Below are positions 26,080 through 54,797 of a stretch of DNA of 64,000 nt, in pieces. The number at the start of each line of letters is the position of its first letter. Position 1 is the stretch's first letter. Below the pieces are notes generated by a model. That model saw only the letters and a list, made by a program, of their open reading frames with translations, ran no database searches and was not told the DNA's origin. Source of the DNA: Candidatus Harrisonbacteria bacterium (GTDB lineage: Bacteria > Patescibacteriota > Minisyncoccia > UBA6257 > 02-FULL-45-10c); the NCBI GenBank assembly GCA_016192685.1, contig JACPTS010000001.1, forward strand, positions 161,710 to 225,709, given 5' to 3'. The position numbers and the translations under genes were made by a program.

Positions 26080-27282
26080 TTAAGTATTAATTAATTTATC
26101 AAAAATATTTTTAAATAATCCGGCGATTCTGTCCCAAGAATAGTTTTCTTGAACAAGCAACTGGCCATTTTTTATAATATTTTTCCTAAGTTCCGGGTTC
26201 ATTAAAAGCCGGTGGATTTTTTCCGCTAAATCCTTCGGGTTATTCACTTTGGCGAAAAGGCCGGTTGCCTGCCCTGAGCTCGTCGAAGGGTCTTTCAAAA
26301 AGTCAGTAATTCCACCGACCGGCGTTCCAATTACCGGCAAGCCGGCGGCCATAGCTTCCAAAAAAGAACTTCCCAATCCTTCAGATCGGGACGGCCGGAC
26401 AAAAATATCAGAAACTTTAAGATAAAGCGGAATATCCCGCTGCGAAATCTGACCTAAAAATAAAACATTATTTTCTAACTTGAGACTTGAGACTTTGGAC
26501 TTGAGATTTTTATATTCCGGGCCATCGCCTATTATCAAACATTTCATATTCAACATTTTACTTTTACAAATAGCAATCGCTTCTATCAAAGTATCAATCC
26601 CATTTTTATAAACCAGCCGTGAAGTGGTAACAATCACGTATTCATCTTGTAAACCTAAATTTGCCCGCGCGGCTTTTAATTCCGCGTTGGTATATCCTGT
26701 TCCGAATAATTCCAAATCTACGCCATTGGGAATAATTTCAATTGGCGCTTTTGCTCCCCGCCGCTTAACAAAATCCTTCAAATAACTGCTGATAGCCTGA
26801 ATATAATCGGCTTTTTTAATAATCATTCCTCCAAAAAATCCAACTAAACCGAATTTTCCTAAAACCATATGTTTTTCTGAATCACCCTCCTGAATAGTCA
26901 ATAAAAACGGGATTCCCGGATGGTTTAATTTAAAAAAAAGCGCGGCGATTCCGCCGTAGGAAGCCATAATGGCCCAGATCGCCTGAAAACGTTTCTGCCG
27001 ATGCAATCGCTCCGCCTCTTGCCAGGCGCTAAAAATGTAAAAAATTTTATTCCAGACTCGGCCGTATCTTTTGCCTTTATTACTGCCCTTCCCAAACCGA
27101 ATAATTTCAACGTTTTCCTGCCTTTCTTTAGACAGCCAGCGAGAATCAAATTTATAAGTAAAAACCGTGAAATTTAACCCCTTTTGTCGTTTAATAACCT
27201 CCCGGGCGGCTATCTCCGCCCCGCCCTCAAAGGGGGCATAAGCTAGAGAAAAAACCGCTATATTAGACTTATTCATAATCAT
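26080..27282 (-). CDS. GT4 family glycosyltransferase
   Basis: PSRSEGLGSSFLEAMAAGLPVIGTPVGG. Confidence 0.8.
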   Translation of the reverse strand: MIMNKSNIAVFSLAYAPFEGGAEIAAREVIKRQKGLNFTVFTYKFDSRWLSKERQENVEIIRFGKGSNKGKRYGRVWNKIFYIFSAWQEAERLHRQKRFQAIWAIMASYGGIAALFFKLNHPGIPFLLTIQEGDSEKHMVLGKFGLVGFFGGMIIKKADYIQAISSYLKDFVKRRGAKAPIEIIPNGVDLELFGTGYTNAELKAARANLGLQDEYVIVTTSRLVYKNGIDTLIEAIAICKSKMLNMKCLIIGDGPEYKNLKSKVSSLKLENNVLFLGQISQRDIPLYLKVSDIFVRPSRSEGLGSSFLEAMAAGLPVIGTPVGGITDFLKDPSTSSGQATGLFAKVNNPKDLAEKIHRLLMNPELRKNIIKNGQLLVQENYSWDRIAGLFKNIFDKLINT

Positions 27283-27311: not shown

Positions 27312-28454
27312 ATGAAACAAAAAGTACTCTATATAATCACTAAAGCCGATATCGGCGGCGCCCAGAAATACGTTAACGATCTATCTACTGGCATTGACAA
27401 AAACGTTTTCGAACCGAAAATTCTTTACGGCGGCCGCGATATCCACTGGTTAATCCGCGATGCTAAACCTTGGCTATTTTTTCTTCCTGACTGGCTAGCT
27501 ATTATAGAATTGATAAAAATTTATAAACGCGAACGGCCGCAAATTATCCATCTAAATAGCTCCAAAGCCGGATTTCTTGGCTCAATTGCCGCAAAATTAT
27601 ACTCATTAACTCTACGACCTACGACCTACGACCTACGACCTAAAATCATTTTCACCGCCCATGGCTGGGTATTCAACCCAACCAATGCCATCTCTCTGCC
27701 AATCCGTTGGTTTTATATTCTCCTCCATAAAATCGCCGCGTTGTTTCAAGATAAAATTATTTGTGTTTCAGAATATGACTACAATCTCGCGTTATCCCGC
27801 GGGATAACGCCAAAAGAAAAATTAGTTACAATTTATAACGGCATTGACCCGAATATTAAATTTTTAGATAAAGAAACAGCTAAAAACGAAATAACAAAAA
27901 AACTTACGACTTACGACTTGCGACTTACGACTAATTGGCCGTGGATTGGATCAATTGGGAGACTCGTTAAAGAAAAAAATTATGAAACCTTATTAGCGGC
28001 AGCGAAATTTATTCCTAATGCTTATTTTTTTATTATTGGCTCAGGGCCAGAGTCAAATAGTCTAAAAGTCAAAAGTCAAAATTCAAATGTCAATAATCGG
28101 TTTTTCTTTATTGAACCGACTGGCAATGATGCCCAATATTTAAAAGCTTTTGATATTTTTGTAATGTCCTCCATTAAAGAAGGTTTACCCTACATATTAT
28201 TGGAAGCGATGGCGGCCGAATTGCCAATTGTGATAACCGAAGCTGGCGGCATGCCGGAAATAATTAAAAATCATGAAAATGGCTTGATGGTATCGCAAAA
28301 GAATCCGGAAATGCTCGCTAAGGGCATTCAAGGATTATTATTTAATAAAAATATCGCCGCGGAACTTGGAAAATCAGCTGGTTTAATAGTCCGAGAAAAA
28401 TTCGGTTTGAATAAAATGATATCGGAAACTTCCTCACTTTATTTTGATATATAA
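27312..28454 (+). CDS. GT4 family glycosyltransferase (contains two in-frame 7-mer tandem arrays)
   Basis: SSIKEGLPYILLEAMAAELPIVITEAGG; arrays at 27613..27640 and 27903..27930. Confidence 0.8.
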   Translation: MKQKVLYIITKADIGGAQKYVNDLSTGIDKNVFEPKILYGGRDIHWLIRDAKPWLFFLPDWLAIIELIKIYKRERPQIIHLNSSKAGFLGSIAAKLYSLTLRPTTYDLRPKIIFTAHGWVFNPTNAISLPIRWFYILLHKIAALFQDKIICVSEYDYNLALSRGITPKEKLVTIYNGIDPNIKFLDKETAKNEITKKLTTYDLRLTTNWPWIGSIGRLVKEKNYETLLAAAKFIPNAYFFIIGSGPESNSLKVKSQNSNVNNRFFFIEPTGNDAQYLKAFDIFVMSSIKEGLPYILLEAMAAELPIVITEAGGMPEIIKNHENGLMVSQKNPEMLAKGIQGLLFNKNIAAELGKSAGLIVREKFGLNKMISETSSLYFDI

Positions 28455-33554: not shown

Positions 33555-36500
33555 CTATTTAGACAAAGTGGTAGCGGTCATGTTCGTTGCCGGTAATCCA
33601 GTCACGCCATAACCATTGGTCCAGTCCAGATTGTACTGGTACTGAAGATTAGATTCATTGGATGAAGTGGATCGCGGCGACCAAATAAAGTCGTTTTGAC
33701 CGTCACTGTTTATCGTGCTAGCTGAACCAAGAGTACCAGCAGTTACGCCACCACTGCCAACATATTGGCCAGGAGTCAAAGTCGGATAAGCCGAGTCGCC
33801 TTCCAACTGAACGCTAAGGTTTTCAGCAGTTCCAGAAGGAGCGAGTGTGCCAACCGAACCTCTTAATTCAAACCAGCGGGATTCGCCGGAAGGAATCTTC
33901 ATAGTAGTGGTGCCTAAGGCACAACCAGTTTTGTCCGGGAAGATTTCCACAAGCGCGGAGCCTGTTCCAAGATTTCCGCCAGTAGCAGCTGATGCGCCAG
34001 ATGTCCTGCCATTGTAGCAATTCCCAGCGTTAATCAAACCGCCAGCATTGTTCGCTCCGCTAAAATCACCGTCTGGAGAACTATATCCGGAATCAGTGAA
34101 AGCGTAAAGCGAAAACTTAGTGGTAGTAGCATTGGAACTTGCCGCTGTTGACGAAGATACGCTGAAAGAAAGCTTAAACAAGTTAATGTCTCCTTGTTTA
34201 GCAGTTATCTTAAAGCGATAGAGCGGCAAGCCATCCTGCGCTTGAAGGGTCTTGTTCGCAAGAGTGCCAGCTTCAAACGTCGGATAAGCTCTCATAATCC
34301 TAACACCGGTGGAAGAGGCAAGAGCGCTGGTCGGAGTAATTGTCTGACCAGAAGAAAGGCCGGTTCCATAGTTAGAAGTGAGGCCGCCGCCGCCGTCATA
34401 GTCAACTTTCAATAAATCGCCAGATTTAACGAGCGGACCAGAAGCGGAAATTCCAGCAAGAGTTCCTTTGACAGTCAAAACTTTAGAACCGTCTTTTGGA
34501 ACTGTGAAGCCGGTAATGGTCGTAGAAGTAGCATTGTCGTTACTGGAGAAAGTGGCAGTGCCAAGCTTGGTAGCTCCATCCCACAAAGTAACTTCTTGGT
34601 TAACTAAGTCAACCGGAGTGTTAGAAGCGCCATCGCTCAATATCAGAGTCAATTGTTTGATGGAAACATCTTCATTAGTAGCGCTGTACTTCAAACGGGA
34701 CAACGTTACTGTTTCGCCAGGAGAAGCAACTAGATAATTCTCTGTAGCTTCCAAGGTAACCGCGAAACTGCCATTGGTTGTCGCCGACATCAATTGGCCC
34801 ATATTATCGTTTTCCGTTACAGTGGCGCTCTGTCCGGATACCAAACCAGTTGGCGACGGAGAAGAATCGCTATCATAACCCCAACGATAAGAACCAGTGG
34901 CCGCGGATTTCAAATCGCACTTCAAAGACAATTGCTTGGTAGCTCCCTTGGTAAGGGTCAAGCCAGTGCCGTCAAAAGTAAACGAAGTGGAAGAACCGCG
35001 AGCCGAAGGATTGACCACGTTACCGCCAGTGGTAAGCAAGGTCGCGCCATCATAAAGTTTGCAGTTAGTTAAATCAGTCGCGCTGCCGCTCGGAATATTA
35101 TATTCCAATGGAAGCGAAGTTAACCGCAAATCTTCACCGGATGCCGCCGTATCCAAGATATACTTGGCAAACTCAAACTGCTGAACGCCAGCAATAACAG
35201 TCTGCGCGATTGGCACAGACGAAACACTGACAGTCATTGCCGGACCTTTGGCAGTCATAGTCTGGCCCGAAACTTTAGAAGTCGGGCTAGGAGTAACTGT
35301 AACGCCAGTAGCTTGGCCAGTTACCGTACCCCAGTCACTGGAAGGAGTAGTAGAAGCCACAATCGTGTCGTTATTTTCAAACGCAGTTGTGCCAGCTGCT
35401 AATTTACCAACCATTTTAAGTTTGGTAACGCCAACCGGGAAGGTAATCGTATCAGTGAAAGTCAAGTTGGCTGTTCCAGCAGTATCCAAAGCTGTTGAGC
35501 TCGGATCAACCGGACCGGCAAGAGTCTTGCCAGTAGCCGCATCAATAAGCTTTACATTATCTAAGTCATCTAGACCAAGACCGGTAGTACCGGAGCTTTG
35601 CGTAAGCGTAATGTGCATTTTTATACTGCCAACAGAAATCTGTTCACCTTTAACATCAACTGACCATCCGCCTAACGGCTGATCAGCCAAGTTAATGGCG
35701 ATATTTTGAGCCGCCACGGTGTTATCCGCGCTAACGGTCATAGTTCCGGTAGAAACCAAGACCTGAGCCGCGTCATACCATGGGTCTTCTGTGTTGCTGA
35801 AAGCGGCCGTATCATCGGTCGGATCAGTTGACCCGGTTTGCGGAGGAATAATGCCATAGCCATAGGTTTCGCCTACGACAAAGAGATCAGTCCTTTTCGC
35901 AAGATCAAAGTCAATTGTCCTGGATGATCCGCTGACAACGTCACCTTTGAGATTGACTTCTTTATTAAAGCCCTTGTCAATCAAGATACCGCTGCCTGGG
36001 AAAACTGATGAATAATACTTCCCATCAGAACTTATAGTAGTGTCGTAGGAAGTACCATCAACAACGGTTTTCACATTGCCCAAATCCGAAGATCCGGCAG
36101 AACCGGTTTGATTCCAACGGATAGACTTCAAATAGACTTTTTCGGCAGAGCCGGCAGTAACTTTAACCGAAGAAAAGGTGTAACTCGTGGTACCAATTTC
36201 TTTGGTTTGGCTAGCGCCTGGATCTAACGGGCCACGAGCCATAGTAACGCTACCAATTGTTAAGGTTTCGTTAATGGTATGAGTGGTTCCAGTAAGAGGC
36301 AAAGCGCCATTTACGGCTGCTGAGGTATTAACCGCAGTTACCCGCAAAGCCAAAGTCTGGCCTCCATAAGAGCCGCCGACAGCTGCGCGATTTGCCGCAA
36401 CCGTTACAACTTTAGTGGTACCGGCTGCTACTTTCATTGACTCGCCAACTGTGGCTTTATGCTCGGAACTTAAAGTCTTTTTAAGGCCAAGCTGGTTGCC

Positions 36501-37193
36501 AGCATCATCTAATAAGAGAACGCTGTCCAAAGCCGCGTCAGCAGCTAAACCAGTTCTTTCTACTGTTAATCCGGTAACAGTTACATCGCCGTCAGCAGAA
36601 GCAGTCAAGTAAACCTTAGTAAAAGGAATTCTTGCCGCATCGCCAGGAGCGAGAGTCGCTGTTGGCTGGTCTGGAGCTAACGTTACCGTTAATCCAGTGC
36701 CTTGCGGTGTTACTACCACCACTGGAGCTGGCGTTGTACCGCCAGTTGTTGGAGCTGGTGCTGGAGCCGCTGCCGCGCCGCCCATTTTCGCCCGAGTTCT
36801 CGGACCAAAATATCCGGCTGCCGGAGAAACTCCGTTCGCGGCCTGCCATTTGGCAAGAGCTTTCTTGGTTAGAGAACCGAAGGTTTCGGTTTCATTGCCA
36901 GGAGAGCCTGCGCCGCTATATTGCTGTAAGGCCTTGACTGCCGCTCCTTTGCTGCCGAGGGTGAGGTCCCCAGAAGAGGTAAGGGTAGCGGAAGCAGTGC
37001 CTGTTCCAGCTGATTCTTGAGCTGCTAATTGAGTTTGCAAGTTAGCGATTTGCGCTAACAAGGCTGCAATTTGCTCTTCCAAAGTTGCTCCGTGAGCAGC
37101 CATTGGAAGCAAAGTTCCTGCTCCGGAAAGGGAAATAACTGTCGCAATTGATACGACAGCTGTAGAAACTTTGTTAATTAATTTATTTTTCAT
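33555..37193 (-). CDS. giant secreted Thr/Ser/Gly/Ala-rich cell-surface protein with N-terminal signal peptide and peptidoglycan-binding-like domain (S-layer-like, candidate O-glycosylation substrate)
   Basis: 1212 aa. Signal peptide MKNKLINKVSTAVVSIATVISLSGAG, then a coiled segment, then a PG_binding_1-like LGSKGAAVKALQQY...ETFGSLTKKALAKWQAANGV...GYFGPRT, then more than 1000 aa of low-complexity T/S/G/A-rich beta-like repeats. Confidence 0.7.
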   Translation of the reverse strand: MKNKLINKVSTAVVSIATVISLSGAGTLLPMAAHGATLEEQIAALLAQIANLQTQLAAQESAGTGTASATLTSSGDLTLGSKGAAVKALQQYSGAGSPGNETETFGSLTKKALAKWQAANGVSPAAGYFGPRTRAKMGGAAAAPAPAPTTGGTTPAPVVVVTPQGTGLTVTLAPDQPTATLAPGDAARIPFTKVYLTASADGDVTVTGLTVERTGLAADAALDSVLLLDDAGNQLGLKKTLSSEHKATVGESMKVAAGTTKVVTVAANRAAVGGSYGGQTLALRVTAVNTSAAVNGALPLTGTTHTINETLTIGSVTMARGPLDPGASQTKEIGTTSYTFSSVKVTAGSAEKVYLKSIRWNQTGSAGSSDLGNVKTVVDGTSYDTTISSDGKYYSSVFPGSGILIDKGFNKEVNLKGDVVSGSSRTIDFDLAKRTDLFVVGETYGYGIIPPQTGSTDPTDDTAAFSNTEDPWYDAAQVLVSTGTMTVSADNTVAAQNIAINLADQPLGGWSVDVKGEQISVGSIKMHITLTQSSGTTGLGLDDLDNVKLIDAATGKTLAGPVDPSSTALDTAGTANLTFTDTITFPVGVTKLKMVGKLAAGTTAFENNDTIVASTTPSSDWGTVTGQATGVTVTPSPTSKVSGQTMTAKGPAMTVSVSSVPIAQTVIAGVQQFEFAKYILDTAASGEDLRLTSLPLEYNIPSGSATDLTNCKLYDGATLLTTGGNVVNPSARGSSTSFTFDGTGLTLTKGATKQLSLKCDLKSAATGSYRWGYDSDSSPSPTGLVSGQSATVTENDNMGQLMSATTNGSFAVTLEATENYLVASPGETVTLSRLKYSATNEDVSIKQLTLILSDGASNTPVDLVNQEVTLWDGATKLGTATFSSNDNATSTTITGFTVPKDGSKVLTVKGTLAGISASGPLVKSGDLLKVDYDGGGGLTSNYGTGLSSGQTITPTSALASSTGVRIMRAYPTFEAGTLANKTLQAQDGLPLYRFKITAKQGDINLFKLSFSVSSSTAASSNATTTKFSLYAFTDSGYSSPDGDFSGANNAGGLINAGNCYNGRTSGASAATGGNLGTGSALVEIFPDKTGCALGTTTMKIPSGESRWFELRGSVGTLAPSGTAENLSVQLEGDSAYPTLTPGQYVGSGGVTAGTLGSASTINSDGQNDFIWSPRSTSSNESNLQYQYNLDWTNGYGVTGLPATNMTATTLSK
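36778..37093. repeat. copy 2 of the duplicated cassette (N-terminus of the giant surface protein gene)
   Basis: see copy 1. Confidence 0.85.
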
Positions 37194-37591
37194 AATCTTT
37201 TTTTGACCTTTCCTCTTGAACTAAATTTATCGACGATTTAACCCAAGAAGAAATTTTTTAGTTATTAATTTGTTAATTTTACGTTTCAAAAATTATCCCT
37301 TTTTACTGTCCCCGCTAAGCGGAGCCGACCCCAGTAAAAGAATAATCTGATATCTAAATGAAAAATCTCGCTTTTGAGCGAGACTGAATTCATTAACTGA
37401 CAACTAACGACCGACGACAAACAACTTTAAAAGTCGTTAGTCGTAAGTTATTAAGTCGTAAGTCAATTTTTCGATCCAGCCTCACTCTGAATCTCTACTT
37501 TTTTAGTATATAACTTTTAGCCTAAAATCTCAAAGCTAAATTGTGTATAATAGGAGACTTTTGGGCTTCAGAATATATAACGATATTGGAG

Positions 37592-38282: not shown

Positions 38283-39050
38283 TTAAATGGTTAATGCCCA
38301 ACTGGAACTCCAAAAAATAAGCCCAGCTAAAATTAAAAAGAAAACCAAGTGCTGGATTAAAAATTCCCGAGAGATGCCGCCGGTAAAATGTTTAAAAAGA
38401 AAATCCGCCAGCGCAAAAGTAAAAAGCAGCATTAAATTAGCCGAACTGATAAAACCGACCGGCAAAAGCGCCGCTGCCCAAAGAAGCTGGGCCACCAGGA
38501 AGGCGGCAACGCCGGCCGCCAAAAGCTCGCGTTTCGGAAAACTAAAAGCGGAAATAAGTTTCAGCCATTCTCGAAAAAGCAAAAAAGAGGCAAAAATTGC
38601 GGCGCCGTATTTCAATAAAAACCACTCGGATTTATCCGACAGGAAAAATTCAATATAAATAGAATAAAAAATCAAAATGGCGGCTAGATAATATAACCTG
38701 CTTCTTTTTATAAAATGATAATTTTTAATTCCCGCCAAAAGATAAAAAATAAAGGCGTATAAAAAAATGCCAGGCCAAAATAAAATAGATTTTTCCAAAA
38801 TCCGCATTCCCAAAATCGCCGCCGGCAATAAAACCAAAAAAGCGTAGCCAGTGGAATAATTTTGAAAAAGCGGCCTGGCGTAAATCGCCGTACTACCCAA
38901 AATAAATAAAAATAACGGGAAAAGACTGAAATCCCAAACCGCTGTCCAGGCCAGCAAAGTGCCGAAAATAATACTTTTAAGAAGTAGCAATAACCGGTTC
39001 TGGTGCGCCTGCCACTGATTTTGTAAGGCTGATTTTAGCTTTTCCGCCAT
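38283..39050 (-). CDS. hypothetical polytopic membrane protein
   Basis: 255 aa with about 8 transmembrane helices; overlaps the 3' end of clpB by 74 nt. Confidence 0.4.
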   Translation of the reverse strand: MAEKLKSALQNQWQAHQNRLLLLLKSIIFGTLLAWTAVWDFSLFPLFLFILGSTAIYARPLFQNYSTGYAFLVLLPAAILGMRILEKSILFWPGIFLYAFIFYLLAGIKNYHFIKRSRLYYLAAILIFYSIYIEFFLSDKSEWFLLKYGAAIFASFLLFREWLKLISAFSFPKRELLAAGVAAFLVAQLLWAAALLPVGFISSANLMLLFTFALADFLFKHFTGGISREFLIQHLVFFLILAGLIFWSSSWALTI

Positions 39051-41703
39051 GTTTTAATTCGCCCTTAATAATCTTATCCGCCATTTTATCTATAATCACT
39101 TTTTGAATCAAACGCCGGAGCGGCCGGGCACCGTATTCCGGGCTATAACCATTTTCTATTAAATAATTTTTTAATGAAGCATCAATAACCAACTTCATTC
39201 CTTTTTCTTCAATCCTCTGCCTTACTTCTGCCAGCTGTTTCTCAACAATCGCTTCAATATCTTTTTTCTTAAGCGGATTAAAAATGATAATTTCGTCAAT
39301 CCGGTTCAAAAATTCCGGCTTAAAACTGTTTTTTAGCTCTTCCTGGATTTTTTCCTTAAAAACCCGACCACGCTCTTCCTGCTCGCCATCGCCGCCGCTA
39401 ATGGCATTAGCGGAAAAACCCAAATTAGCCATTTCTTTTAAGTAATGGCTGCCGACATTGGAAGTCATGATAATAATAGAATTTTTAAAATTCACTATCC
39501 GCCCCTTGCCGTCGGTAAGGCGCCCGTTATCCAAAACCTGAAGCAAAATATTAAAAACTTCCGGATGGGCTTTTTCAATTTCATCAAACAAAATCAAACT
39601 ATACGGGCGGTGCCGGACAATTTCCGTCAGCTGGCCGCCTTCTTCATAACCGACATAGCCGGGCGGCGAGCCAATCATCCGGGAAACCGCGTGCTTCTCC
39701 ATATATTCGGACATATCAATCCGCACCAGCGACTTTTCGTCATTAAACATAAATTCCGCCAGCGCTTTTGCCAGTTCGGTTTTACCGACCCCGGTCGGGC
39801 CGAGAAACATAAATGACCCAAGCGGACGATTTTCATCCGAAAGTCCCGCTCTGGCGCGCCGCAAAGCGCTGGATACCGCGCTGATTCCTTCTTTTTGGCC
39901 GATGACTCTGCCGGATAAAACCTCTTCAATTTTTACTAATTTTTCCCCTTCGGATTCCAGCATTTTCGTTACCGGAATACCGGTCCAGCGGGAAACCACC
40001 AGCGCCACATCTTCTTCATCAACGCTTTCTTTTAAAAACCGCTCAGCCCTATCAGCCCTATCAGACTTATCAGACTTATCAGACTTATTAACCTTATTAG
40101 ACTTATCAGTCCTATTAGACCAACCAGACTTATAATTCCGATTCTCAAAATTCTTGAAGTTTTTCTCGGCCAGCGGCAATTGGCCGTAAAGAATCTGGGC
40201 GACCCTTTCTAAATTGCCTTCCCGCTCGGCCACTTCCGCTTCCCGCTTTAAATCTTCAATTTTCTTCCGCAAATTATGCAAATTTTCAAAAGCGATTTTT
40301 TCCGCGTGCCATTTCGCCGATAAATCGTCATTTTTTTCTTTTAGCTCCGCGATTTCTTTTTCTACTTCTTTAATCCGCTTTTTGCTTTCGGCTCCGGTTT
40401 CTTTCAAAAGCGCTGACCGCTCCACTTCCAGGCGAGTAAGCGCCCGGCGGACTTTATCAATCTCACCGGGCAGGCTTTCCGTTTCTAAACGCCGCGCCGC
40501 GGCCGCTTCGTCCACCAAATCAACCGCTTTATCCGGCAAAAACCGGTCGGCGATGTATCTCGCGGATAAATTCACTGCCGCCAGCAAAGCCTCATCGCTG
40601 ATCCTAAGGCCGTGATGAATTTCATATTTTTCTTTAAGGCCGCGCAAAATCGTCAAACTGTCTTCCAGATTCGGCTCTTCCACTAAAATCGGCTGAAACC
40701 GCCGTTCCAAGGCCGGGTCCTTTTCAATATGCTTTTGAAATTCTTTTAAAGTAGTGGCGCCGATCGCGTGCAGTTCGCCGCGGGCTAAAGCCGGCTTTAA
40801 TAAATTAGAAGCGTCCACCGCGCCCTCTGCCGCTCCGGCGCCTACTATCATATGTATTTCATCAATAAAAAGAATGAGCCGGCCAGCCGCGTTTTGAATT
40901 TCTTTTATAAAAGCTTTTAAGCGGTCTTCAAACTCGCCGCGGAATTTCGTGCCGGCAATCAAAGAACCGATATCCAGCATTATAATTTCTTTATCCTTTA
41001 GGGGCTCGGGAACATCTCCGGAAACAATTCTTTGCGCCAATCCCTCAACAATCGCGGTTTTTCCAACGCCCGGCTCGCCGATTAAAATCGGATTATTTTT
41101 TGTCCGTCGGGAAAGAACTTGGATTACCCGCCTTAGCTCTTCATCGCGGCCGATTACCGGGTCTAATTTTCCATCGCGGGCTTTGTCCGTAAGATTGATG
41201 GCGTATTTATCCAAAACTTGAAATTTGCTTTCCGGCGTCTCATCGGTAACCCGCGTAGAGCCGCGAAGCTGGGCAAGAATCCGAAGCGCCGCCTCTCGTT
41301 TAAAACCGGCCCGCTCCAGTAAAATCTGGGCGGCGGAAGCCGTCTCTAAAATTCCGAGCAGCAAATGCTCACAGGAAATAAATTCGTCTTTTTGGGCCTG
41401 GGCAATTTTGGCGGCTTTATCCAAAACCTGCATCAATTCCTGCGACAAATACAGCTGGCCGACATTGGAAGCGGTAAAAATTTTCGGCAGCTTTTTTAAT
41501 TCTTCTTCAATCTGCTGGTCTAATTTATCCAAATTCACTCCGCTTCGCATTAAAAGCGGCTGGACTAAAGATTGGGTGTCGGGAATAAGCGCCGCCAAAA
41601 GATGGAGCGCCTTGAATTCGCCATGATTTTTTGCAGCAGCCAAGTCCTGCGCATTCTGAAGCGCTTCCTGCGCTTTAATTGTGAAACGATTGAAATTCTT
41701 CAT
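38977..41703 (-). CDS. clpB: ATP-dependent chaperone ClpB, with an in-frame low-complexity (KSD)n-like insert
   Basis: Clp N-terminal domain; two AAA modules ([24 protein letters not shown]); the middle coiled-coil; the ...VSRWTGIPV signature. The insert [34 protein letters not shown] is encoded by 9-nt periodic repeats at 40040..40135. Confidence 0.95.
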
Positions 41704-43181: not shown

Positions 43182-44540
43182 TTATAACACGCGCATTAAA
43201 ACTTTAGTCAATCGGTCAATTTCAGCTTTGGTAGTCGGCCGGCCGAAAGTGAATCGCAGACTGCTCATCGCCCGCTCTTCACTATGCCCCATAGCAGTTA
43301 AAACATGCGACGGCTGGCAGGTACGCGCAGTACAGGCGGATCCCGGAGAAACCGCGAAACCGGCCAAATCTAATTTGATAAGCAATTCTTGCGCCGCACT
43401 GCCTGGAAAATAAAAATTAAGATTATTCGGATTTCTTTTTTCCAAATCTTCCGGACCGTTCAATTTTGCTTTGGGCGCGATTTTTTTCATCCGCGCCAAA
43501 AAATACTCCTGCAATTTCCGCAATCTCTTATTTTCTGAATTTCTTGATTTCTCAACCAATTCCACTGCTTTTCCAAATCCGACAATGGCCGGCACATTTT
43601 CTGTCCCGCCCCGCAAGCCGTATTCTTGTTGGTTACCACCGGTAATAATCGGATGAAGCATAAAACTTGAAGCATGAAACATTTCTTTTTGTTTCAAGTT
43701 ACGTGTTTCATGTTTCATGAAAAGTGCGCCAGCTCCTTTTGGCCCATAAATTTTTTGCGCCGATAGCGTCAGTAAATCCACGCCCAACTCATTAACATCG
43801 CAATTTAAATAATTGAAAGCTTGGACGGCATCGGTGTGCAGCAATGGATATGCCATTGCTGAACTTTTAACATTTAACTTTTGACTTTTAACTTCTCTAA
43901 AATTTCGGATAATCTCCGAAATTTTAGAGATTGGCTGAATAATTCCCACTTCATTATTCACATACATCGCGGAAACTAAAATAGTCCGCTCGTCCAACGC
44001 ATCTTTCAGCTTTTTCAAATCCACTAATCCATTTTTATCTACAGGCAGATAAACCACCTCTACGCCGTCTTTCTCTAAGTCTCGCGCGGTTTCTAAAATA
44101 GAATCGTGCTCAATAGAAGAAACAATTATTTTAGGTAAAAATGGTTCAGCTGTTTTCGTGCGGAAACTACGGAGCTCCGATTTGCTTGGTTCCGCCGAAG
44201 GCGGAAAATCGGAGCGAGGCGTAGCGGGCTCTCGCCGCTGGAGCGAGAGAACCGCGGTTCCGGTAGAAAATTGCTGAACCATTTTCACCGCGCCCCGCAG
44301 CGCCAAGTTATTTGCTTCAGTTGCTGAGCTCGTAAAAATTATTTCCCGATAATTTGCGCCAATAGATTTCGCAACGATATCACGTGCCTGAAAAATCGCT
44401 GCCGAAGCTTCCTGCCCAAACCAATGCAAAGCCCCGGGATTGCCGAATTTTTTAGACCAGTACGGCTCCATCGCCTTTTTCACTCGCGAGTCCAGCGGCG
44501 TCCCAGCCGCGTAATCAAAATAATAACGTTTCAGCCTCAT
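43182..44540 (-). CDS. iscS: cysteine desulfurase (IscS/NifS family, class V aminotransferase), with about 45-aa and about 14-aa in-frame inserts
   Basis: YFDYAAGTP, SSATEANNLA, LLHTDAVQA, SAQKIYGPKGAGALF, class V fold; inserts at 44141..44282 (GC-rich element) and 43650..43720, 43865..43900 (AT-rich repeats). Confidence 0.85.
   Translation of the reverse strand: MRLKRYYFDYAAGTPLDSRVKKAMEPYWSKKFGNPGALHWFGQEASAAIFQARDIVAKSIGANYREIIFTSSATEANNLALRGAVKMVQQFSTGTAVLSLQRREPATPRSDFPPSAEPSKSELRSFRTKTAEPFLPKIIVSSIEHDSILETARDLEKDGVEVVYLPVDKNGLVDLKKLKDALDERTILVSAMYVNNEVGIIQPISKISEIIRNFREVKSQKLNVKSSAMAYPLLHTDAVQAFNYLNCDVNELGVDLLTLSAQKIYGPKGAGALFMKHETRNLKQKEMFHASSFMLHPIITGGNQQEYGLRGGTENVPAIVGFGKAVELVEKSRNSENKRLRKLQEYFLARMKKIAPKAKLNGPEDLEKRNPNNLNFYFPGSAAQELLIKLDLAGFAVSPGSACTARTCQPSHVLTAMGHSEERAMSSLRFTFGRPTTKAEIDRLTKVLMRVL
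44141..44282. repeat. GC-rich multi-hairpin palindromic element, copy A (in frame within iscS)
   Basis: Closing inverted repeat atggttcagc/gctgaaccat; internal hairpins ctccgattt...aaatcggag, ttccgcc-gaa-ggcggaa, ctctcgc-cgctg-gagcgagag; conserved aactacgga, gaggcgtag, cgctggag, ccggt..atagaaa. Confidence 0.8.
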
Positions 44541-46023: not shown

Positions 46024-47421
46024 TTAGACTATAATCAACTTTTTCAGATTTTGCAACTCCTTATTTAAAATATTTTTATCCGTCGATTCTATATTCAAAC
46101 GCAATAAATTTTCTGTATTGGAGGGACGAAGATTGAACCAATAATCTGAAAACTCTATTGTAAGCCCATCTAAACTTAGAATCTGCTTTGCTCCTTGCCG
46201 ATATCTCATTTCAACTGCCCGAAGAACTTTTTCTTTATCCCGAACTTCAAAATTCAGCTCGCCGGAGCGGTAGTATCTCGGCAATTTATCCAACCAACTG
46301 GCCAAATCCCCCTTCAAGGCAGAAACAAAATTTATTACTTCAATCGCCGCTAAAATTCCGGAATCGCAGTAAAAGAATTTTTTAAAGTAGTAATGCCCGG
46401 AATGTTCCAATCCTAAAGAAGCTTTCTTCTCACGCATTAATTTTTTGAAAAAATAATGGCCGACTCGAGAAATAATCGCGCCTTTTACTTTAATGCGTTT
46501 GCTGGATACTACTCCTACCACATAAGGCGATGGAAAAAGTTTTGTTAAAATATAAGCGCTTTCGTTCGGGTCAATCCACCGGCCGCGATTATCTATAAAA
46601 AATACCCTATCTCCGTCCGCGTCAAAAATCACCCCCAGATCGGCCTTTTGTTTTTTTACTTCTTTTTCCAATTGGCCAGTTGCGCCTTTTAAAAGCGGAT
46701 TCGGCCCATGCGCCGGAAAATTCCCGTCCGGATTGTCATTTATAAAAATTGTCGTTAGTTGTTTGTTGTTAGTTGTAAGTTGCCGCAATATGCGGCCGGT
46801 TGTGCCATTGGAACAATCAAAAACCACTTTTAATTTTCGTTTGGGTTTTAAAAATTTTTTAAGAAAATAAGAATACAAGGATATATCGGATTTGCCTGCG
46901 TTTCGTACGGCAACTACGGAGCCGCCAAAAGATTGGTCTCGCCGAAGGCGAGTTTTGGCGGCGAGGCGTAGGCGCGCTCCGCCGCTGGAGCGGAGCGACG
47001 CCGGTGCCGATAGAAATGCAGGCGAAGCCGATACTAATTTCAAAATTTCCTTACCGCTGATTGGCCGCGCATTTTTACCAACTACCTTTAAACCGTTATA
47101 ATTTTTAGGATTGTGAGAAGCGGTTACCATAATCCCGCCATCGGCTTTCAATTTATTAACCAAAAAATAAAGCGTCGGGGTAGTCATAATTCCTACAGAA
47201 ATAACTTTTAACTTGTAACTTTTAACTTTTAACCCGCTAGTAACTGCTTTATATAATGTAGGTGAACTTAACCGGCCATCGCGGCCAACAATTATTTTTG
47301 CCCGCCCGCCAAAATGTTTCCCAACCGCCGCGGCGATTTGAAAAGCTGTTTCCTCATTTAATTCTTCCGGGTATTTCCCCCGGACATCGTAAGCTTTAAA
47401 AATTTTTGGTTCTATCGGCAT
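46024..47421 (-). CDS. pgm: phosphoglucomutase/phosphomannomutase (alpha-D-phosphohexomutase), with an in-frame GC-rich element insert
   Basis: KAYDVRG, IMVTASHNPKNYNGLKV, GVIFDADGDRVFFID, GLEHSGHYYF. The ORF-track start at 47550 is probably too early; MPIEPKIFKAYDVRG at 47421 fits the family. Confidence 0.85.
   Translation of the reverse strand: MPIEPKIFKAYDVRGKYPEELNEETAFQIAAAVGKHFGGRAKIIVGRDGRLSSPTLYKAVTSGLKVKSYKLKVISVGIMTTPTLYFLVNKLKADGGIMVTASHNPKNYNGLKVVGKNARPISGKEILKLVSASPAFLSAPASLRSSGGARLRLAAKTRLRRDQSFGGSVVAVRNAGKSDISLYSYFLKKFLKPKRKLKVVFDCSNGTTGRILRQLTTNNKQLTTIFINDNPDGNFPAHGPNPLLKGATGQLEKEVKKQKADLGVIFDADGDRVFFIDNRGRWIDPNESAYILTKLFPSPYVVGVVSSKRIKVKGAIISRVGHYFFKKLMREKKASLGLEHSGHYYFKKFFYCDSGILAAIEVINFVSALKGDLASWLDKLPRYYRSGELNFEVRDKEKVLRAVEMRYRQGAKQILSLDGLTIEFSDYWFNLRPSNTENLLRLNIESTDKNILNKELQNLKKLIIV
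46894..47012. repeat. GC-rich multi-hairpin palindromic element, copy B (in frame within pgm)
   Basis: Closing inverted repeat gcctgc/gcaggc; hairpins ccgccaaaa...ttttggcgg, ctcgcc-gaa-ggcgag, gctccgc-cgctg-gcggagc. The same conserved single-stranded motifs as copy A, with compensatory changes in the stems. Confidence 0.8.
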
Positions 47422-47472
47422 CGCATTTAAATTATAGCTTAATGATATAATAAAATTGAATTCCGAATTGCC

Positions 47473-49563
47473 ATGACTAAAAAAAATAAGAAAAACAAGC
47501 CTGGCCAAAATTTTCCAGGAAAACTGCGGTCTTTCCGTTCCCAAATCCATCCGGAAACCGAACGGAGCATTTTAGCGGTTTTTTTCATTGCCGCCAGCGC
47601 AGTCTTAATTTTAGCCAGTTTTCATAACGCCGGCCCGGCTGGAGAATTTATTTTTAACTGGCTGACGAAATTCTTCGGGTTTGGCTATTACTTATTTCCT
47701 ACTATTTTTCTGGTTATCGCCGGAGTCTTTCTTTCCGGCGGAAAAGAAGAAAACGACCGGTCGCTGGGAATGACTTTTTTGGGCGGAACGCTTTTTATAA
47801 TTTCCGGACTCGGTTTAATTGATATCCTTTATCCGGCCAAAGGAGGCTGGATCGGAGAATGGATGGGAATGATTGAAATTCCTTTTGGTTATATTGCCGG
47901 CATTATTATCGCCGCCACCATCCTAATCTCCGCCCTGCTTTTAACTATTAATCTGCCGCTAAAATTATGGCGGCCGAAGCCGAAAATTATCATTCAAACT
48001 CCGGAACCAGAAAAACCGGCAGCCGGAGAAACTGCTTTAACTCCCAAGGAAGAAAAAAAGATAGAAGCCCCGACAATAAAAATAGAAAATCCTAAAGCCT
48101 TTTTTACTCCAAAAAAACAAATTAAAGCTTCGGCTGACGCTATTGGAAAAAACTATACTCCCCCGCCGCTTTCGCTTTTAAAATCCACCATTGAGAAACC
48201 GACAGCCGGCGATTTGCGCGCCAACGCCAACATTATTAAAAGAACTCTAGACAGTTTTGGCATTCCGGTGGAAATGGGAGAAATTTCCATCGGCCCGAAA
48301 GTTACCCGATACACCCTAAAGCCAGCCGAAGGAATAAAACTGGCGCGCATCACGGCTTTAAATCAGGACTTAGCCTTGGCGCTCGCCGCCCATCCCATCC
48401 GGATTGAAGCGCCAATCCCAGGAAAATCCCTGGTCGGCATTGAAGTGCCGAATAAATCCGCGGCCATTGTCCGTCTTGGCAGTTTAATGGCTTTTCCGGA
48501 ATTCACCGCTTCCGGCCCGCTGGGATTTATTTTGGGGCGGGATGTCAGCGGCGACCCGATTATGGCGGACATCGGCAAAATGCCGCATCTTTTGATTGCC
48601 GGTTCCACCGGTTCTGGAAAATCAGTCGCCATCCATTCTTTAATTATTTCTCTTTTATATAAAAATTCTCCGGAAACTTTAAAATTGATACTGATTGACC
48701 CGAAGCGGGTAGAACTTACTATCTATAATGAAATTCCCCATCTAATCGCTCCGGTGATTACCGACGGCAAAAAAGCGCTCGGGGTTTTCCGCTGGGCAAT
48801 TGAAGAAATGGAAAAACGGTATGAAAAACTCCAAGCCGCGGGCGCCAGAGACATTAAAAGCTATAACGCTTCCCGACCCAGCGAATCCCTGCCTTATTTA
48901 GCAATCATAGTTGATGAACTGGCGGATTTAATGGCGGCTTATGGCCGCGACGTGGAAAGCGCTATTGTCCGCCTTGCCCAAATGGCTCGCGCCACCGGAA
49001 TCCATCTGGTGCTTTCCACCCAAAGGCCGTCAGTAGAAGTTATCACCGGACTAATTAAAGCAAACATTACTTCCCGCATGGCGCTTCAAGTAGCGAGCCA
49101 AGTGGATTCCCGAACTATTCTGGATATGTCCGGAGCGGAAAAACTGCTGGGCGGCGGCGATATGCTTTTTGTTTCCGCGGAACTTTCTAAGCCCAAAAGA
49201 ATTCAGGGCGCTTACATCAGCGAAGAAGAACTCCACGCGGTTACTGATTTTATTCGCGACAACAATGAAATCTTAAAAAATGAAACCGGTGAAGAACCAG
49301 AAGATCTTAACCCGACGATCGCGGACAAATTTGATTTTGATGAATTCGCCAGCGCCGAAGAAGATGATGAATTATATGACGAGGCAGTAGCCGTTGTCCG
49401 AGAAGCCCAAAAAGCTTCGGCCTCTCTTTTACAGCGCCGACTGGCAGTCGGCTATGCCCGCGCCGCGCGCCTTTTGGACATCATGGAAGAGCGCGGCGTG
49501 GTCGGCCCAGGCGACGGCGCCAAACCGCGGGAAGTATACATTGATAAAACCGATAATTTATAA
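47473..49563 (+). CDS. ftsK: DNA translocase FtsK
   Basis: N-terminal transmembrane helices; GSTGSGKSV Walker A; LILIDPKRVEL; IVDELADLM; RATGIHLVLSTQRPSV; C-terminal gamma winged-helix (LLQRRLAVGYARAARLLDIMEERGVV). Confidence 0.9.
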   Translation: MTKKNKKNKPGQNFPGKLRSFRSQIHPETERSILAVFFIAASAVLILASFHNAGPAGEFIFNWLTKFFGFGYYLFPTIFLVIAGVFLSGGKEENDRSLGMTFLGGTLFIISGLGLIDILYPAKGGWIGEWMGMIEIPFGYIAGIIIAATILISALLLTINLPLKLWRPKPKIIIQTPEPEKPAAGETALTPKEEKKIEAPTIKIENPKAFFTPKKQIKASADAIGKNYTPPPLSLLKSTIEKPTAGDLRANANIIKRTLDSFGIPVEMGEISIGPKVTRYTLKPAEGIKLARITALNQDLALALAAHPIRIEAPIPGKSLVGIEVPNKSAAIVRLGSLMAFPEFTASGPLGFILGRDVSGDPIMADIGKMPHLLIAGSTGSGKSVAIHSLIISLLYKNSPETLKLILIDPKRVELTIYNEIPHLIAPVITDGKKALGVFRWAIEEMEKRYEKLQAAGARDIKSYNASRPSESLPYLAIIVDELADLMAAYGRDVESAIVRLAQMARATGIHLVLSTQRPSVEVITGLIKANITSRMALQVASQVDSRTILDMSGAEKLLGGGDMLFVSAELSKPKRIQGAYISEEELHAVTDFIRDNNEILKNETGEEPEDLNPTIADKFDFDEFASAEEDDELYDEAVAVVREAQKASASLLQRRLAVGYARAARLLDIMEERGVVGPGDGAKPREVYIDKTDNL

Positions 49564-49577
49564 TAAACTGGTTATTT

Positions 49578-50225
49578 ATGGAAACTCACAAAGACCTTAA
49601 AACTTTATTGGATGACGCCCTGGAACTTCGCAATGTCAATCATGAGAGGCTGGCAGAGCTCACCGGCATTTCCGAACGCTACCTTTGGGCAATTCAAAAT
49701 CTGGAAGTTGATAAATTGCCGGCCGCTCCTTACGTCCGCGGCTATCTTAAAAAAATTTCTGAAGTCCTCCATTTAAATCACGACGAGCTTTGGGAAATGT
49801 ATAAAAAAGCCATGGAGAAAAAAACTGCCGGCCGCTATGACACTCTGCCGGCTAACCGTTTTTCTATCCGGCATTTATCCCGGAGAGAATTATTTTTATT
49901 AGGAGCCGGCGCTCTGCTGATTCTTTACCTTATAATTAACCTGCCAAGGCTAATCGGCAAACCAACTCTTGTTGTTACCAATCCAACCGCGCCGATTTTC
50001 GCGTTTTTTGAAAAAACTATTATTTTAACCGGATATTCAAACCAAAGAGACAAACTCACGGTTAATGGCGAAGAAATTTTTATTTCAAAAACCGGCGAGT
50101 TTTCCAAAGAATATTCTTTACAGCCCGGATTAAATAAGATAGAATTTAAGGCAAAGCGATTCCTGGGAAAAGAAGTTTCGGAAATTAGAGAAATAATTTA
50201 TCAACCAATCAATGGTCAAAGATAA
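49578..50225 (+). CDS. RodZ-like cytoskeleton protein (HTH + transmembrane helix + C-terminal domain)
   Basis: N-terminal [33 protein letters not shown], one transmembrane helix. Confidence 0.45.
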
Positions 50226-51210: not shown

Positions 51211-51286
51211 TTTTCCGCCAGTCTTGTAAAATTCTTTAAAAAGTTTATCATATAATTAGTCCTAAAAATCATAATGGGCGGTTAGG

Positions 51287-51580
51287 ATGAAAACCAACGG
51301 ACAACTGCCGATTCAAGAATTGGAAGAGTGCGTTAAAAAACTTCAAGAAACTGAAGACGGCAACTATATCGTCTGGGCCGCTATCGGACCGGATGATCAC
51401 TTTCTCAAAGACCAGCAAGGCAAAATTATTGCCAGCACTTCCCCAATTGATATCCAATCAAAAATAGAGGAATGTTATCCGGAATTGGCAAAAAAGAAAA
51501 CTTATCACCTTAAACCTCTGACCGAAGAATACCTGGAAAGAATTAAAACCAGAAGTATTTATCCAAGACTCCCTCATTAG
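51287..51580 (+). CDS. hypothetical protein
   Basis: 97-aa ORF, no recognisable motif. Confidence 0.3.
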   Translation: MKTNGQLPIQELEECVKKLQETEDGNYIVWAAIGPDDHFLKDQQGKIIASTSPIDIQSKIEECYPELAKKKTYHLKPLTEEYLERIKTRSIYPRLPH

Positions 51581-52425
51581 AGGGAGTTTAATTTGTAAAA
51601 ATTTTTAAATATCTCGGCAACTAATATCGGTCCGGTTCCGCCCGGTGTGGGAGTATAAAAGCTTAAATCATGAAGCTTAAAACTTGAAACATCTAAATCT
51701 CCGTGAATTTTTTTCGTATCTGTTTCATGTTTCATGTTACATGTTTCATCGCACAAGCTGTAGCCAAAATCAATAACGCCCGCGCCTGGCTTTAACATTT
51801 CCGGCTTTATTAAGCCGCCTTTTCCAACCGCGGTAATCACCAAATCCGCTTCTCTAATTTTTGATAAATCACTTTTGCTGTGGAAAATAATTAATTCTTT
51901 ACATTTGCCCCGCAGCCAATCCGCCATTGGTTTCCCGACCAAAAATCCCCTTCCAACCACCGCTATCACTTTAGTCTTAAGTTCATAATCTCTGGTCTGT
52001 AGTATATCTTTAACCACTTCCACTGGCAGCGGCGAAACAAATTTTTGGCTTTCCGGCGTCAGCGCGTCAATATCTTGTTTCGGGTTAATTGCGGCTAAAA
52101 CCGTGTCGCGGTTAAAATGCGGCGGCAGGGGCAATTGCACGATTAAACCGCCGATTTCAGGATCAGCGCCGATTTTCTTAATTTCCGAAATTAAATCTTC
52201 CTCTAAAATTTCATCTCCAAATTGAAATAATTCAAAAACTATTCCCAATTCTTTAGCCATCAGTTCTTTCTGCCGCAAAAAACTTTTGGACTGCGCCGCT
52301 TGAGGTGAGCCCGTCGAACCAACTAAAATCGCGGCCAGAATTTTATTTGGTTTTGATAATTTTTTTAAATCTGAAATAATATCACTTGCTAATTTTTTAC
52401 CGTCAATTACCATGCGATTTTCCAT
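51577..52425 (-). CDS. folD: bifunctional methylenetetrahydrofolate dehydrogenase/cyclohydrolase FolD (with C-terminal-region insert)
   Basis: ILVGSTGSPQAAQSKSFLRQK, LIVQLPLP, VIAVVGRGFLVGKPMA, TPTPGGTGP; insert CNMKHETDTKK...SSFKLH encoded at 51660..51750. Confidence 0.85.
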   Translation of the reverse strand: MENRMVIDGKKLASDIISDLKKLSKPNKILAAILVGSTGSPQAAQSKSFLRQKELMAKELGIVFELFQFGDEILEEDLISEIKKIGADPEIGGLIVQLPLPPHFNRDTVLAAINPKQDIDALTPESQKFVSPLPVEVVKDILQTRDYELKTKVIAVVGRGFLVGKPMADWLRGKCKELIIFHSKSDLSKIREADLVITAVGKGGLIKPEMLKPGAGVIDFGYSLCDETCNMKHETDTKKIHGDLDVSSFKLHDLSFYTPTPGGTGPILVAEIFKNFYKLNSL

Positions 52426-53387: not shown

Positions 53388-53456
53388 CTCTCAATAATTA
53401 TAACCTCCTATTCTTCCAATTGTTTTTCCAATTAGCTAACAATGCGTTGGAGATTA

Positions 53457-53945: not shown

Positions 53946-53959
53946 ATTATAATAATAAC

Positions 53960-54334: not shown

Positions 54335-54390
54335 AGCTCCGCGCAGCAAGCTGCGGAGTATTCGGCGACGGAGAATAAAAATTGGGCCGC

Positions 54391-54702: not shown

Positions 54703-54797
54703 CGCTTTGAATTATTTTCAAGCTTTCCTGACCTCAAATTAACACTAAAAAAAGAGCAGGTCAATCAGGGTGCCTAGAGGGAATCACAAATAATTTG

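Follow-up and report, generated by a model that had tools for sequence, protein, structure and literature searches.

The window analysed here, a 64-kb stretch of the 608-kb genome of a very small groundwater bacterium, Candidatus Harrisonbacteria (coding share of the window 90.6%), contains related repeat segments in the genes of two unrelated housekeeping enzymes, iscS (43653-43719) and folD (51657-51749). In both genes, approximately 4.5 tandem CATGAAA units stand opposite an inverted, more degenerate TTTCATG array. We conclude, with moderate confidence, that the two segments are copies of a dispersed family of heptamer arrays, copied as blocks of ~33 nucleotides (nt) and tolerated and translated in surface loops of their host proteins. 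Among the observations behind this conclusion are these: iscS and folD share motifs beyond chance; the period of 7 nt is specific; and close relatives differ from the window by the presence or absence of 33 nt, or by arrays of other units.

Repeats common to iscS and folD

The host genes were identified by Pfam, PDB, and homologue searches. Open reading frame (ORF) 43182..44540 (minus strand) encodes the class-V aminotransferase/cysteine desulfurase IscS (Pfam Aminotran_5; best PDB match, IscS 4r5f), which is 100% identical to an annotated protein of a Candidatus Harrisonbacteria metagenome-assembled genome (MAG) on a 608-kb contig; ORF 51577..52425 (minus strand) encodes FolD. The elements of the two segments are as follows:

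43690..43719, minus strand: iscS site 3, 5′ arm (CATGAAA CATGAAA CACGTAA CTTGAAA CA), encoding (M)KHETRNLKQ and containing the family signature GTTACGTGTTTCATG (plus strand, 43698-43712)
43683..43689, minus strand: iscS site 3, hairpin loop, A-rich
43653..43682, minus strand: iscS site 3, 3′ arm (ATGTTTC ATGCTTC AAGTTTT ATGCTTC AT), encoding MFHASSFMLH and containing a 23-mer shared with folD
51714..51749, minus strand: folD arm A (ATGAAAC ATGTAAC ATGAAAC ATGAAAC AGATACG), encoding DETCNMKHETDT
51693..51713, minus strand: folD host codons KKIHGDL (21 nt; conserved and not part of the repeat), separating the two arms
51657..51692, minus strand: folD arm B (ATGTTTC AAGTTTT AAGCTTC ATGATTT AAGCTTT), encoding DVSSFKLHDLSF

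The window contains the 23-mer, ATGAAGCWTAAAACTTGAARCAT, at two places, 43653-43675 and 51670-51692, and nowhere else; 100 shuffles that preserve dinucleotides gave no match. The 15-mer GTTTCATGTTTCATG is present exactly at 43705-43719 and 51722-51736 and, with up to two mismatches, has 6 matches, versus 0.17 expected from shuffles. The spacing between the 23-mer and the 15-mer is 29 nt in both genes. The shuffles thus rule out chance similarity. The original prediction, made from the letters of the window, had quoted both sequences and had proposed a common inverted-repeat layout with 7-mer units, which adds homologous peptides to two unrelated enzymes; the sequences lie where it had placed them, the layout is confirmed, and the peptides MKHETRNLKQKEMFHASSFMLHP and CNMKHETDTKKIHGDLDVSSFKLHD are present in the IscS and FolD translations. 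Among 191 loci, the exact arm variant TTCAAGTTTTAWGCTTCA was found only in iscS and folD of this genome, which suggests copying or conversion inside the genome.

Compared with shuffles, the iscS copy of the CATGAAA motif forms a better hairpin (RNA z = −3.4). Folding is only weak for the folD copy (RNA z = −1.4), yet the arms of this copy are significantly complementary, with arm B, which covers a variable site of the protein (site B), being complementary to arm A (p < 0.003). Because arms A and B are located on either side of conserved codons, the ‘loop’ of the folD hairpin consists of host codons.

A class of period-7 arrays

The two segments belong to a general class. TRF identified ~20 period-7 arrays in the window, each 24–34 nt in length, with 4–5 copies of the unit and 88–100% identity to its own consensus, and with at least eight unit types in all. 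A strict autocorrelation score finds 9 arrays with period 7, 4 with period 14, and 0–1 with every other period from 4 to 15; by a looser score (TRF and autocorrelation), there are 16–18 arrays at period 7 and at most 3 at other periods, except for period 14, its double (17 and 11). Nineteen of the ~21 arrays are located within ORFs and in frame, specifically in five GT4 genes and in the genes for PGM, IscS, FolD, and one unknown ORF. Apart from the CATGAAA segments, the arrays are:

43862..43894, minus strand: iscS site 2, 33-nt (AAGTTAA)4.7 array, encoding EVKSQKLNVKS
47202..47233, minus strand: pgm site 1, (GTTAAAA)4.6 array, encoding GLKVKSYKLKV
46751..46782, minus strand: pgm site 3, (CAACTAA)4.6 array
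20625..20867, minus strand: three arrays in GT4 20262..21362 (20625-20651, GAATTAG; 20695-20717, TTCATTA; 20834-20867, CAAGCGA)
24194..24845, minus strand: five arrays in GT4 23800..24969 (24194, AAGTTAT; 24264, GAATCAG; 24457, CTAAAAG; 24701, AGTYATT; 24814, AACAGAC)
25332..25364, minus strand: (AAGTTAA) array in GT4 24966..26078, directly after the GDGPE motif
26478..26502, minus strand: (AAGTCTC) array in GT4 26080..27282, positioned as in the paralogues
27612..28087, plus strand: three arrays in GT4 27312..28454 (27612, CTACGAC; 27902, ACTTACG; 28064, AAAAGTC)
8026..8054, minus strand: (TTTATTA) array in ORF 6703..8466
37395..37470, intergenic: hairpin of heptamer arrays, (GACTTAC)n followed by (GTCGTTA)n

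Units recur within the 64 kb: AAGTYAA at 6 loci, CGACTWA/ACTTACG at 4, GAATYAG at 2, and CATGAAA at 2. In particular, the AAGTYAA family has 13 matches, versus 0.46 expected, and is located in iscS (43862-43894), in pgm (47202-47233), and in four GT4 genes (24194, 25332, 26478, and 28064). The original prediction had described this family as (acttttaac)n; the family is real and has the proposed hosts, but the repeat unit, AAGTYAA when read along the coding strand, has 7 nt rather than 9 nt. Nor do it and the CATGAAA motif constitute two special families, as had been proposed; they are two of the at least eight unit types.

All five GT4 paralogues have an array directly after GDGPE, and two also have an array just before it. 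Convergent inverted pairs are present in iscS, in folD, in GT4 20262..21362 (where the GAATTAG and TTCATTA arrays surround the IIGDGPE codons), and at 37395-37470. Many arrays are single, without a partner arm, and single arrays do not fold.

Protein-level heptad selection was rejected as the main cause of period 7, since an 11-codon array holds only 1.6 heptads and the identity is at a lag of 7 nt. A known RNA family was likewise ruled out: Rfam at the gathering threshold, applied to the whole window, gave no match at or near any array, and Rfam at E ≤ 1 gave none on the GC-rich element described below (44100-44320). An assembly artefact was ruled out by five Logan contigs from different sequencing runs, which are 100% identical over 46988-56111, and by the same array class in relatives from ENA, JGI, and NCBI. 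No length polymorphism was found among these five same-population contigs, which may derive from one strain.

Arrays are in frame and free of stops

With perfect consensus units, the 19 intragenic arrays would contain ten in-frame stops; the number observed is 0. The other two sense frames of the same arrays contain 37 stops, and the antisense frames contain 63. Three AAGTTAA arrays lose the same in-frame TAA in three ways, by changes to TCAA, TACA, and TGAA. The orientation of the arrays matches the coding strand, including in the plus-strand GT4 gene, and A makes up 43% of the arrays on that strand, versus 31% in host ORFs. Stops have been purged, and the arrays are kept in frame at variable loop sites.

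AlphaFold2 models the core of IscS confidently and gives a predicted local distance difference test (pLDDT) score below 50 at 94-131 (the GC-rich element) and 279-311 (the CATGAAA hairpin). The original prediction had placed the inserts where orthologues are shorter. This holds for IscS, whose inserts fall on gaps of solved IscS 4r5f in the alignment, and for folD arm A, which corresponds to 33 nt missing from the close relative L001 (folD 85% identical); it does not hold for folD arm B, which lies on a loop already variable in nearly all Parcubacteria FolDs. At the loop, the FolD of the window is longer than solved FolD 8wfc by just 4–5 residues.

Arrays coincide with differences among relatives

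To compare the host genes, we aligned iscS, pgm, and folD at the nucleotide level with L001, a syntenic contig, and L003. The arrays coincide exactly with the places at which the window, L001, and L003 differ. In iscS, site 2 corresponds to an exact 33-nt gap in L003 and to a (GTCAnnA) array in L001, and site 3 in L001 is occupied by (AAGAGAC)x3 in place of the CATGAAA hairpin of the window. In pgm, site 1 is a (GAATTAG)5-loop-(ATAATTC)5 hairpin in L001 and an (AAAGTCA) array in L003, and site 3 in L001 has the unit CGACTAA, with the A-to-G difference repeated in three units; such parallel substitutions in several units of one array are seen between the window and its relatives. The 33-nt presence/absence quantum was seen three times. 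Because 33 nt is not a multiple of 7, arrays in essential genes did not grow unit by unit and must arrive as blocks.

In a further relative, L005, each of the three IscS sites, as well as pgm, carries an element of ~84 nt that comprises (AGGGTTT)4.4, an A/T loop of 19–23 nt, and (CTAACCC)4. Two of these four copies, at four sites in 4.5 kb, have an identical 23-nt loop. Neither the 33-nt gaps nor the four L005 copies have target-site duplications or common target motifs. A 27-protein IscS alignment reveals three hot-spot sites across Parcubacteria, with identical peptides reappearing at different sites.

Parcubacteria DNA totalling 383 kb contains 113 unique arrays with a period of 7, versus at most 15 at any other period. 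Their median length is 30 nt (interquartile range 26.5–32), and three exceed 35 nt. As controls, Prevotella loci contain 1 array in 178 kb, and L007, from a member of the Parcubacteria with an insert-free IscS, contains 0 in 21 kb.

The FolD loop

Across 120 homologues of FolD and 80 FolD loci from metagenomes, a conserved K-I-x-G-D-F motif has a variable site on either side, and the arms in the window border the corresponding K-I-x-G-D motif. The basal form of site B comprises 9–10 residues and has no periodicity. In contrast, the expanded forms, which have many unit types, have 7 as the best period in 29 of 41 unique variants, and 27 of the 41 have a period-7 self-identity of at least 0.5, versus 0.4% of shuffles. 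In four FolD lineages, that of the window among them, arms A and B are reverse complements of each other (p < 0.003 each); 6 of the 10 FolD variants that carry an arm-A insert have no such complementarity.

The loop of the window is also present in some distant orthologues (L034, L120, and L135). L034, from an assembly labelled Saccharibacteria, is identical to L120 and has its arms at the same site as the window. The window and L034 share 78% of their nucleotides within the loop (71% at third codon positions) and 55% in the remainder of the gene (38%); for the window and L001, the values are 55% within the loop and 85% outside it. Since identity in the loop exceeds that in the gene for the distant L034, with the reverse for the close L001, loop and gene have had separate histories. 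We considered whether arm B of the window and of L001 are orthologous arrays with concerted changes, and dropped this, as 4 of 7 shared unit positions is not significant.

The original prediction had named as its counter-case a family-specific loop present in orthologues across the phylum. One half of this counter-case is observed, in that distant orthologues do have the FolD loop; the distribution is patchy, though, the closest relative lacks it, and its nucleotide conservation is far above that of the rest of the gene. Such a pattern is evidence for a family of repeats and counts against a protein loop passed on by descent.

The CATGAAA family across genomes

We scanned 185,579 species genomes with the pattern ATGAAACATGAAACN{10,40}TGTTTCA. 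The scan returned 99 stretches, versus a chance expectation, from a rough calculation, of under ten; the window's own genome was not among the genomes returned. The stretches comprise ~40 in MAGs of the Candidate Phyla Radiation (CPR), ~30 copies of an unrelated Prevotella repeat, and ~9 Planctomycetes hairpins. The CPR groups represented are Moranbacteria, Saccharibacteria, Azambacteria, Parcubacteria, Falkowbacteria, Spechtbacteria, and Minisyncoccia.

Many of the CPR copies are perfect intergenic hairpins, many of them beside gene starts or ends; in-frame copies are present in TsaE, in PrmC, at the N-terminus of FtsW/RodA, and in prepilin leaders. The arms of the iscS copy are identical at 28 of 30 positions to arms in unrelated CPR MAGs, and the non-periodic signature GTTRCGTGTTTCATG (43698-43712 in the window) is present at 8 loci in at least five other genomes. 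The CATGAAA family extends over several genes and genomes, independently of the phylogeny of its host genes.

Proposed origin and alternative explanations

We infer an origin by slippage and template switching, with the following route of copying. Replication slippage on 7-nt units would generate arrays and homogenise them at the DNA level. Ready-made blocks of ~33 nt, either a single arm or an arm-loop-arm unit, would be copied to further sites, most likely through template switching during replication or through recombination, and less likely by a dedicated transposase. Snap-back copying could produce an inverted partner arm close by and would leave host sequence as the ‘loop’. The intragenic survivors would be the copies that lie in permissive surface loops, in frame, and that have lost their stops; the ribosome would read them as low-complexity loops, and a benefit to the host would not be required. 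The original prediction of a dispersed family of mini-insertions, tolerated or translated within proteins, is upheld insofar as the repeats are a DNA-level feature, in frame, in unrelated proteins, with translation being probable from the frames; it goes too far for the GT4 arrays, which occupy the normal segment after the GDGPE motif and so are not pure insertions.

Several points weigh against this account. The analysis identified neither an enzyme nor a copying route, and target-site duplications or defined termini are not visible at the 33-nt gaps or at the L005 copies. The 33-nt quantum excludes unit-by-unit slippage inside essential genes, and the account cannot explain the source of the ready-made blocks; the tight size of ~30 nt, independent of the unit, is also without explanation. 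The conservation of unit and signature across distant CPR lineages could reflect a selected function. Translation as low-complexity, probably disordered loops is predicted from the open frames, and the copy number per genome is extrapolated from 64 kb of a 608-kb genome.

[quoted passage not shown] The discrete arm-loop-arm copies at four L005 sites in 4.5 kb, two with identical loops, would fit such an element, as would presence or absence as a 33-nt block, the patchy distribution across CPR with a conserved signature unit common to several genomes, the decoupling of the FolD loop from gene phylogeny, and the existence of both intergenic and intragenic copies. We nevertheless regard it as rather unlikely: there are no target-site duplications, common target motifs, or sharp termini, and the arrays fade into degenerate units; arms around conserved host codons (in FolD and in two GT4 genes) are not producible by one insertion of a preformed hairpin; many arrays are single and partnerless; at least eight unit types would demand equally many recognition specificities; and no transposase is found among the genes annotated near iscS, pgm, and folD, with most of the window's remaining ORFs unannotated. 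It is improbable, on the evidence of close relatives that either lack the array or have different units there while the gene shows no sign of being lost, that the arrays are selected functional structures, that is, messenger RNA (mRNA) stem-loops tuning translation or decay, or protein-binding sites, with the peptides as a by-product. Nucleotide conservation of the unit and the non-periodic signature across distant CPR lineages, co-variation of arms A and B in four FolD lineages, the many intergenic copies adjoining gene starts or ends, and the better-than-shuffled fold of the iscS hairpin speak for such structures; the weak folD fold (z = −1.4), the 6 of 10 arm-A FolD variants without complementarity, the failure of single arrays to fold, and the unrelated functions of the host genes speak against them.

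The reading frames bear on whether the segments are intervening sequences kept out of the protein by mRNA excision or ribosome bypassing. Several segments do form hairpins and are located in essential enzymes, and hairpin-dependent mRNA removal of inverted-repeat inserts is known in animals (PMC12779559). However, 19 of 19 intragenic arrays are in frame and stop-free only in the host frame, all ten consensus-predicted stops are mutated away, insert lengths are multiples of 3 (33 nt), and orientation matches the coding strand, including in the single plus-strand GT4 gene, which makes excision or bypassing very improbable. Ordinary lineage-specific protein loops under protein selection, with an incidental nucleotide likeness of iscS and folD, are barely credible, despite the FolD loop peptide in some distant orthologues (P0123, P0212, and P0232) and the variation of the same IscS sites across the phylum. 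Amino-acid selection cannot yield a 7-nt period, the motifs shared by iscS and folD have a chance expectation of zero, third-codon-position identity between the window and L034 is greater in the loop than in the rest of the gene, and the closest relative, L001, lacks the FolD loop; the shuffles, the period spectrum, the L001 gap, and the FolD loop identities already contradict this explanation. A cluster of five GT4 genes with 13 arrays is a typical setting for phase variation, and gain or loss of a 7-nt unit would shift the frame. We give contingency repeats that switch genes in this way next to no probability, since the arrays are imperfect (88–100%), short (~4.5 units), and constant in length, are present also in iscS, folD, and pgm, and are identical in the five contigs from different runs, and since the split pgm genes of relatives are not broken at an array.

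A bolder version of block copying, which we consider possible but doubtful, is a self-propagating micro-element of the CPR: a ~33-nt block of ~4.7 heptamers, written in one step, often with an inverted partner 20–45 nt away, and spread between genes and CPR lineages by a dedicated activity (polymerase, reverse transcriptase, or recombinase) with a ~30-nt ruler. A large share of the additional loops by which CPR proteins exceed their homologues in length and variability would then stem from this activity. If the favoured account of block copying holds, roughly one gene in three of this small genome would contain translated repeat DNA, and the hypervariable loops of CPR enzymes (IscS, FolD, PGM, GT4, TsaE, and PrmC) would be written by a DNA-level repeat process, not by protein selection. 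This would have consequences for the annotation, alignment, and phylogeny of CPR proteins, would account for some assembly breaks, and would provide a natural test of random-peptide tolerance in essential enzymes.

Relation to known repeat systems

Literature searches linking CPR or Patescibacteria with heptamer, tandem, or simple sequence repeats found nothing relevant in the library searched. In other bacteria, the heptameric simple sequence repeats (SSRs) or short tandemly repeated repetitive (STRR) sequences known from Xanthomonas and from heterocystous cyanobacteria such as Nostoc (Rehm et al. 2015, PMC4692102; also Mrazek et al. 2007 and Mazel et al. 1990, cited there) consist of tandem 7-nt units, as here. 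Heptameric SSRs are over-represented in many bacteria, with approximately four units preferred; Xanthomonas has 70–75 convergent inverted heptamer pairs per genome; and one hypothesis ties slippage to how large the active site of the polymerase is (PMC4692102). The arrays of the window resemble them in having tandem 7-nt units, many dispersed loci per unit type, a preference for approximately four units, frequent convergent inverted pairs capable of forming stem-loops, differences in sequence and length between close relatives at the same locus, and polymerase slippage as a proposed origin. They differ in location and composition: the known arrays are rich in G, lie mainly between genes, and are depleted from coding sequence, with the four-unit preference ascribed to G-quadruplexes, whereas the arrays here have mostly A/T-rich units of at least eight types, are intragenic in 19 of ~21 cases, in frame and stop-purged, have a ~30-nt limit without G-tracts, and belong to a CPR host. 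Since the preference for approximately four units exists here without G-tracts, G-quadruplexes are not its cause, which points to a mechanism generating or limiting the arrays. Phase-variable SSRs are not matched, the arrays being imperfect, of fixed size, and identical in five contigs.

RPEs, described by Ogata et al. 2000 as summarised in PMC10969869, are palindromic inserts of ~100–150 bp, in frame in unrelated housekeeping genes of Rickettsia. They resemble the arrays in being palindromic, in frame in unrelated housekeeping genes with a conserved, fold-compatible peptide, and resident in reduced genomes, with no known transposase. The arrays do form an in-frame family in unrelated ORFs (IscS and FolD, and elsewhere TsaE, PrmC, and FtsW) and are not 100–150-bp palindromes. 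RPEs lack an internal 7-nt periodicity and belong to another phylum, whereas the AT-rich repeats here extend from ~33 nt (single arm) to ~70–90 nt (hairpin), their arms can border host codons, and no sequence relationship is apparent (homology to RPE families was not searched). MITE and REP sequences are also short, of non-coding origin, have inverted repeats and many copies, and are sometimes fused in frame, as with Coxiella QMITE (PMC5896051); here, no target-site duplication or sharp termini were seen, nor a cognate insertion sequence among the annotated genes around iscS, pgm, and folD in these 64 kb, with the 33-nt gaps and the four L005 copies lacking target-site duplications, the arms are tandem subrepeats, and single arms occur.

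Other repeats in the window and in relatives

A GC-rich palindromic element of ~120–150 nt, in a genome of 40% GC, is a repeat class distinct from the heptamer arrays. It has three copies in the window:

44134..44289, minus strand: iscS site 1, in frame, ~150 nt; RNA fold −69.8 kcal/mol, z = −7.7
46900..47017, minus strand: second copy, in frame, pgm site 2
63034-63153: third copy, intergenic, just downstream of the RNase Y-like ORF 63188..63991

The element adds ~43 residues to IscS, and related peptides (..RQFSxGT...SELRSFRTKTAEPF..) are present at IscS site 1 across Parcubacteria. The iscS copy is ~95% identical to that of L003 by eye in the alignment, with flanking codons at ~80%. The ~150-nt element of iscS and pgm (44134-44289 and 46900-47017) is a closer analogue of RPEs than the heptamer arrays are.

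The Logan contigs break within the pgm copy. In several relatives, phosphoglucomutase is split into two ORFs (domain I; domains II–IV) at the site of the GC-rich element of the window, as follows:

L003, 2348-3623: split pgm
L005, 6578-7961: split pgm
L006, 5889-7271: split pgm
L007, 2516-7294: split pgm, with ~3.5 kb containing three genes, one for an AAA ATPase, between the halves

In the window itself, the longest pgm ORF (46024..47550) overlaps ftsK (47473..49563) and includes, at 47422-47550, 43 codons upstream of the start used in relatives (MPIEPKIF...); a start at ~47421 is probably the true one.

Small dispersed repeats of Nostoc, which Elhai and co-workers reportedly described in 2008, are 21–27 nt in length, nested in or associated with other repeats, and possibly mobile without a known enzyme. 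A 20-nt GC palindrome, CCTGCCTRCCGGCAGGCAGG, resembles them in being nested in the FolD heptamer arrays of other Parcubacteria, specifically at FolD site B in P0134, P0137, P0219, P0221, and L126 (peptides ..CLPVGRA.. and ..PAGRQ..); the Nostoc repeats are not known as translated inserts in housekeeping enzymes. In the window, the palindrome is located at:

23905-23930: in frame in GT4 23800..24969, peptide CLPAGRQA
61498-61520: intergenic

Tandem arrays with a 9-nt unit are also present. The array TATCAGACT x 9.3 (40043-40133, minus strand) is located in a ClpB-like ORF (38977..41703) that is ~20 residues longer than the ClpB of L003 and L006, and arrays of CCAATAAGT (30175-30210 and 32769-32822) are located in two paralogous ORFs. 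Two pairs of 100%-identical direct repeats lie ~5.3 kb apart, 31464-31605 with 36777-36918 (142 nt) and 31623-31698 with 37019-37094 (76 nt); one copy of each is at the 5′ end of a 1212-residue ORF (33555..37193). A group I intron (Rfam RF00028, 73 bits; 56194-56442, minus strand) lies within the anticodon loop of a tRNA gene that was not called by ARAGORN; the exons, GCCTGGGTAGCTCAGTGGTAGAGCGCAGCCCT and GAAGAGGCTGGCGTCCGGTGTTCGATTCACCGCCCAGGCA, make by eye a candidate tRNA-Phe(GAA) with predicted splice sites.

The Prevotella stretches returned by the pattern scan are a ~130-nt intergenic repeat, AAAACACTGWGGGAGCG....CGCTCCCTCAGTGTTTT followed by ATGAAACATGAAACTAAAAATGAAACAT...ATGTTTCA, present in L013, L019, L026, and ~25 other loci of Prevotella UMGS287/Alloprevotella. 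Each genome holds dozens of copies of this conserved repeat, which has no relation to the CPR arrays.

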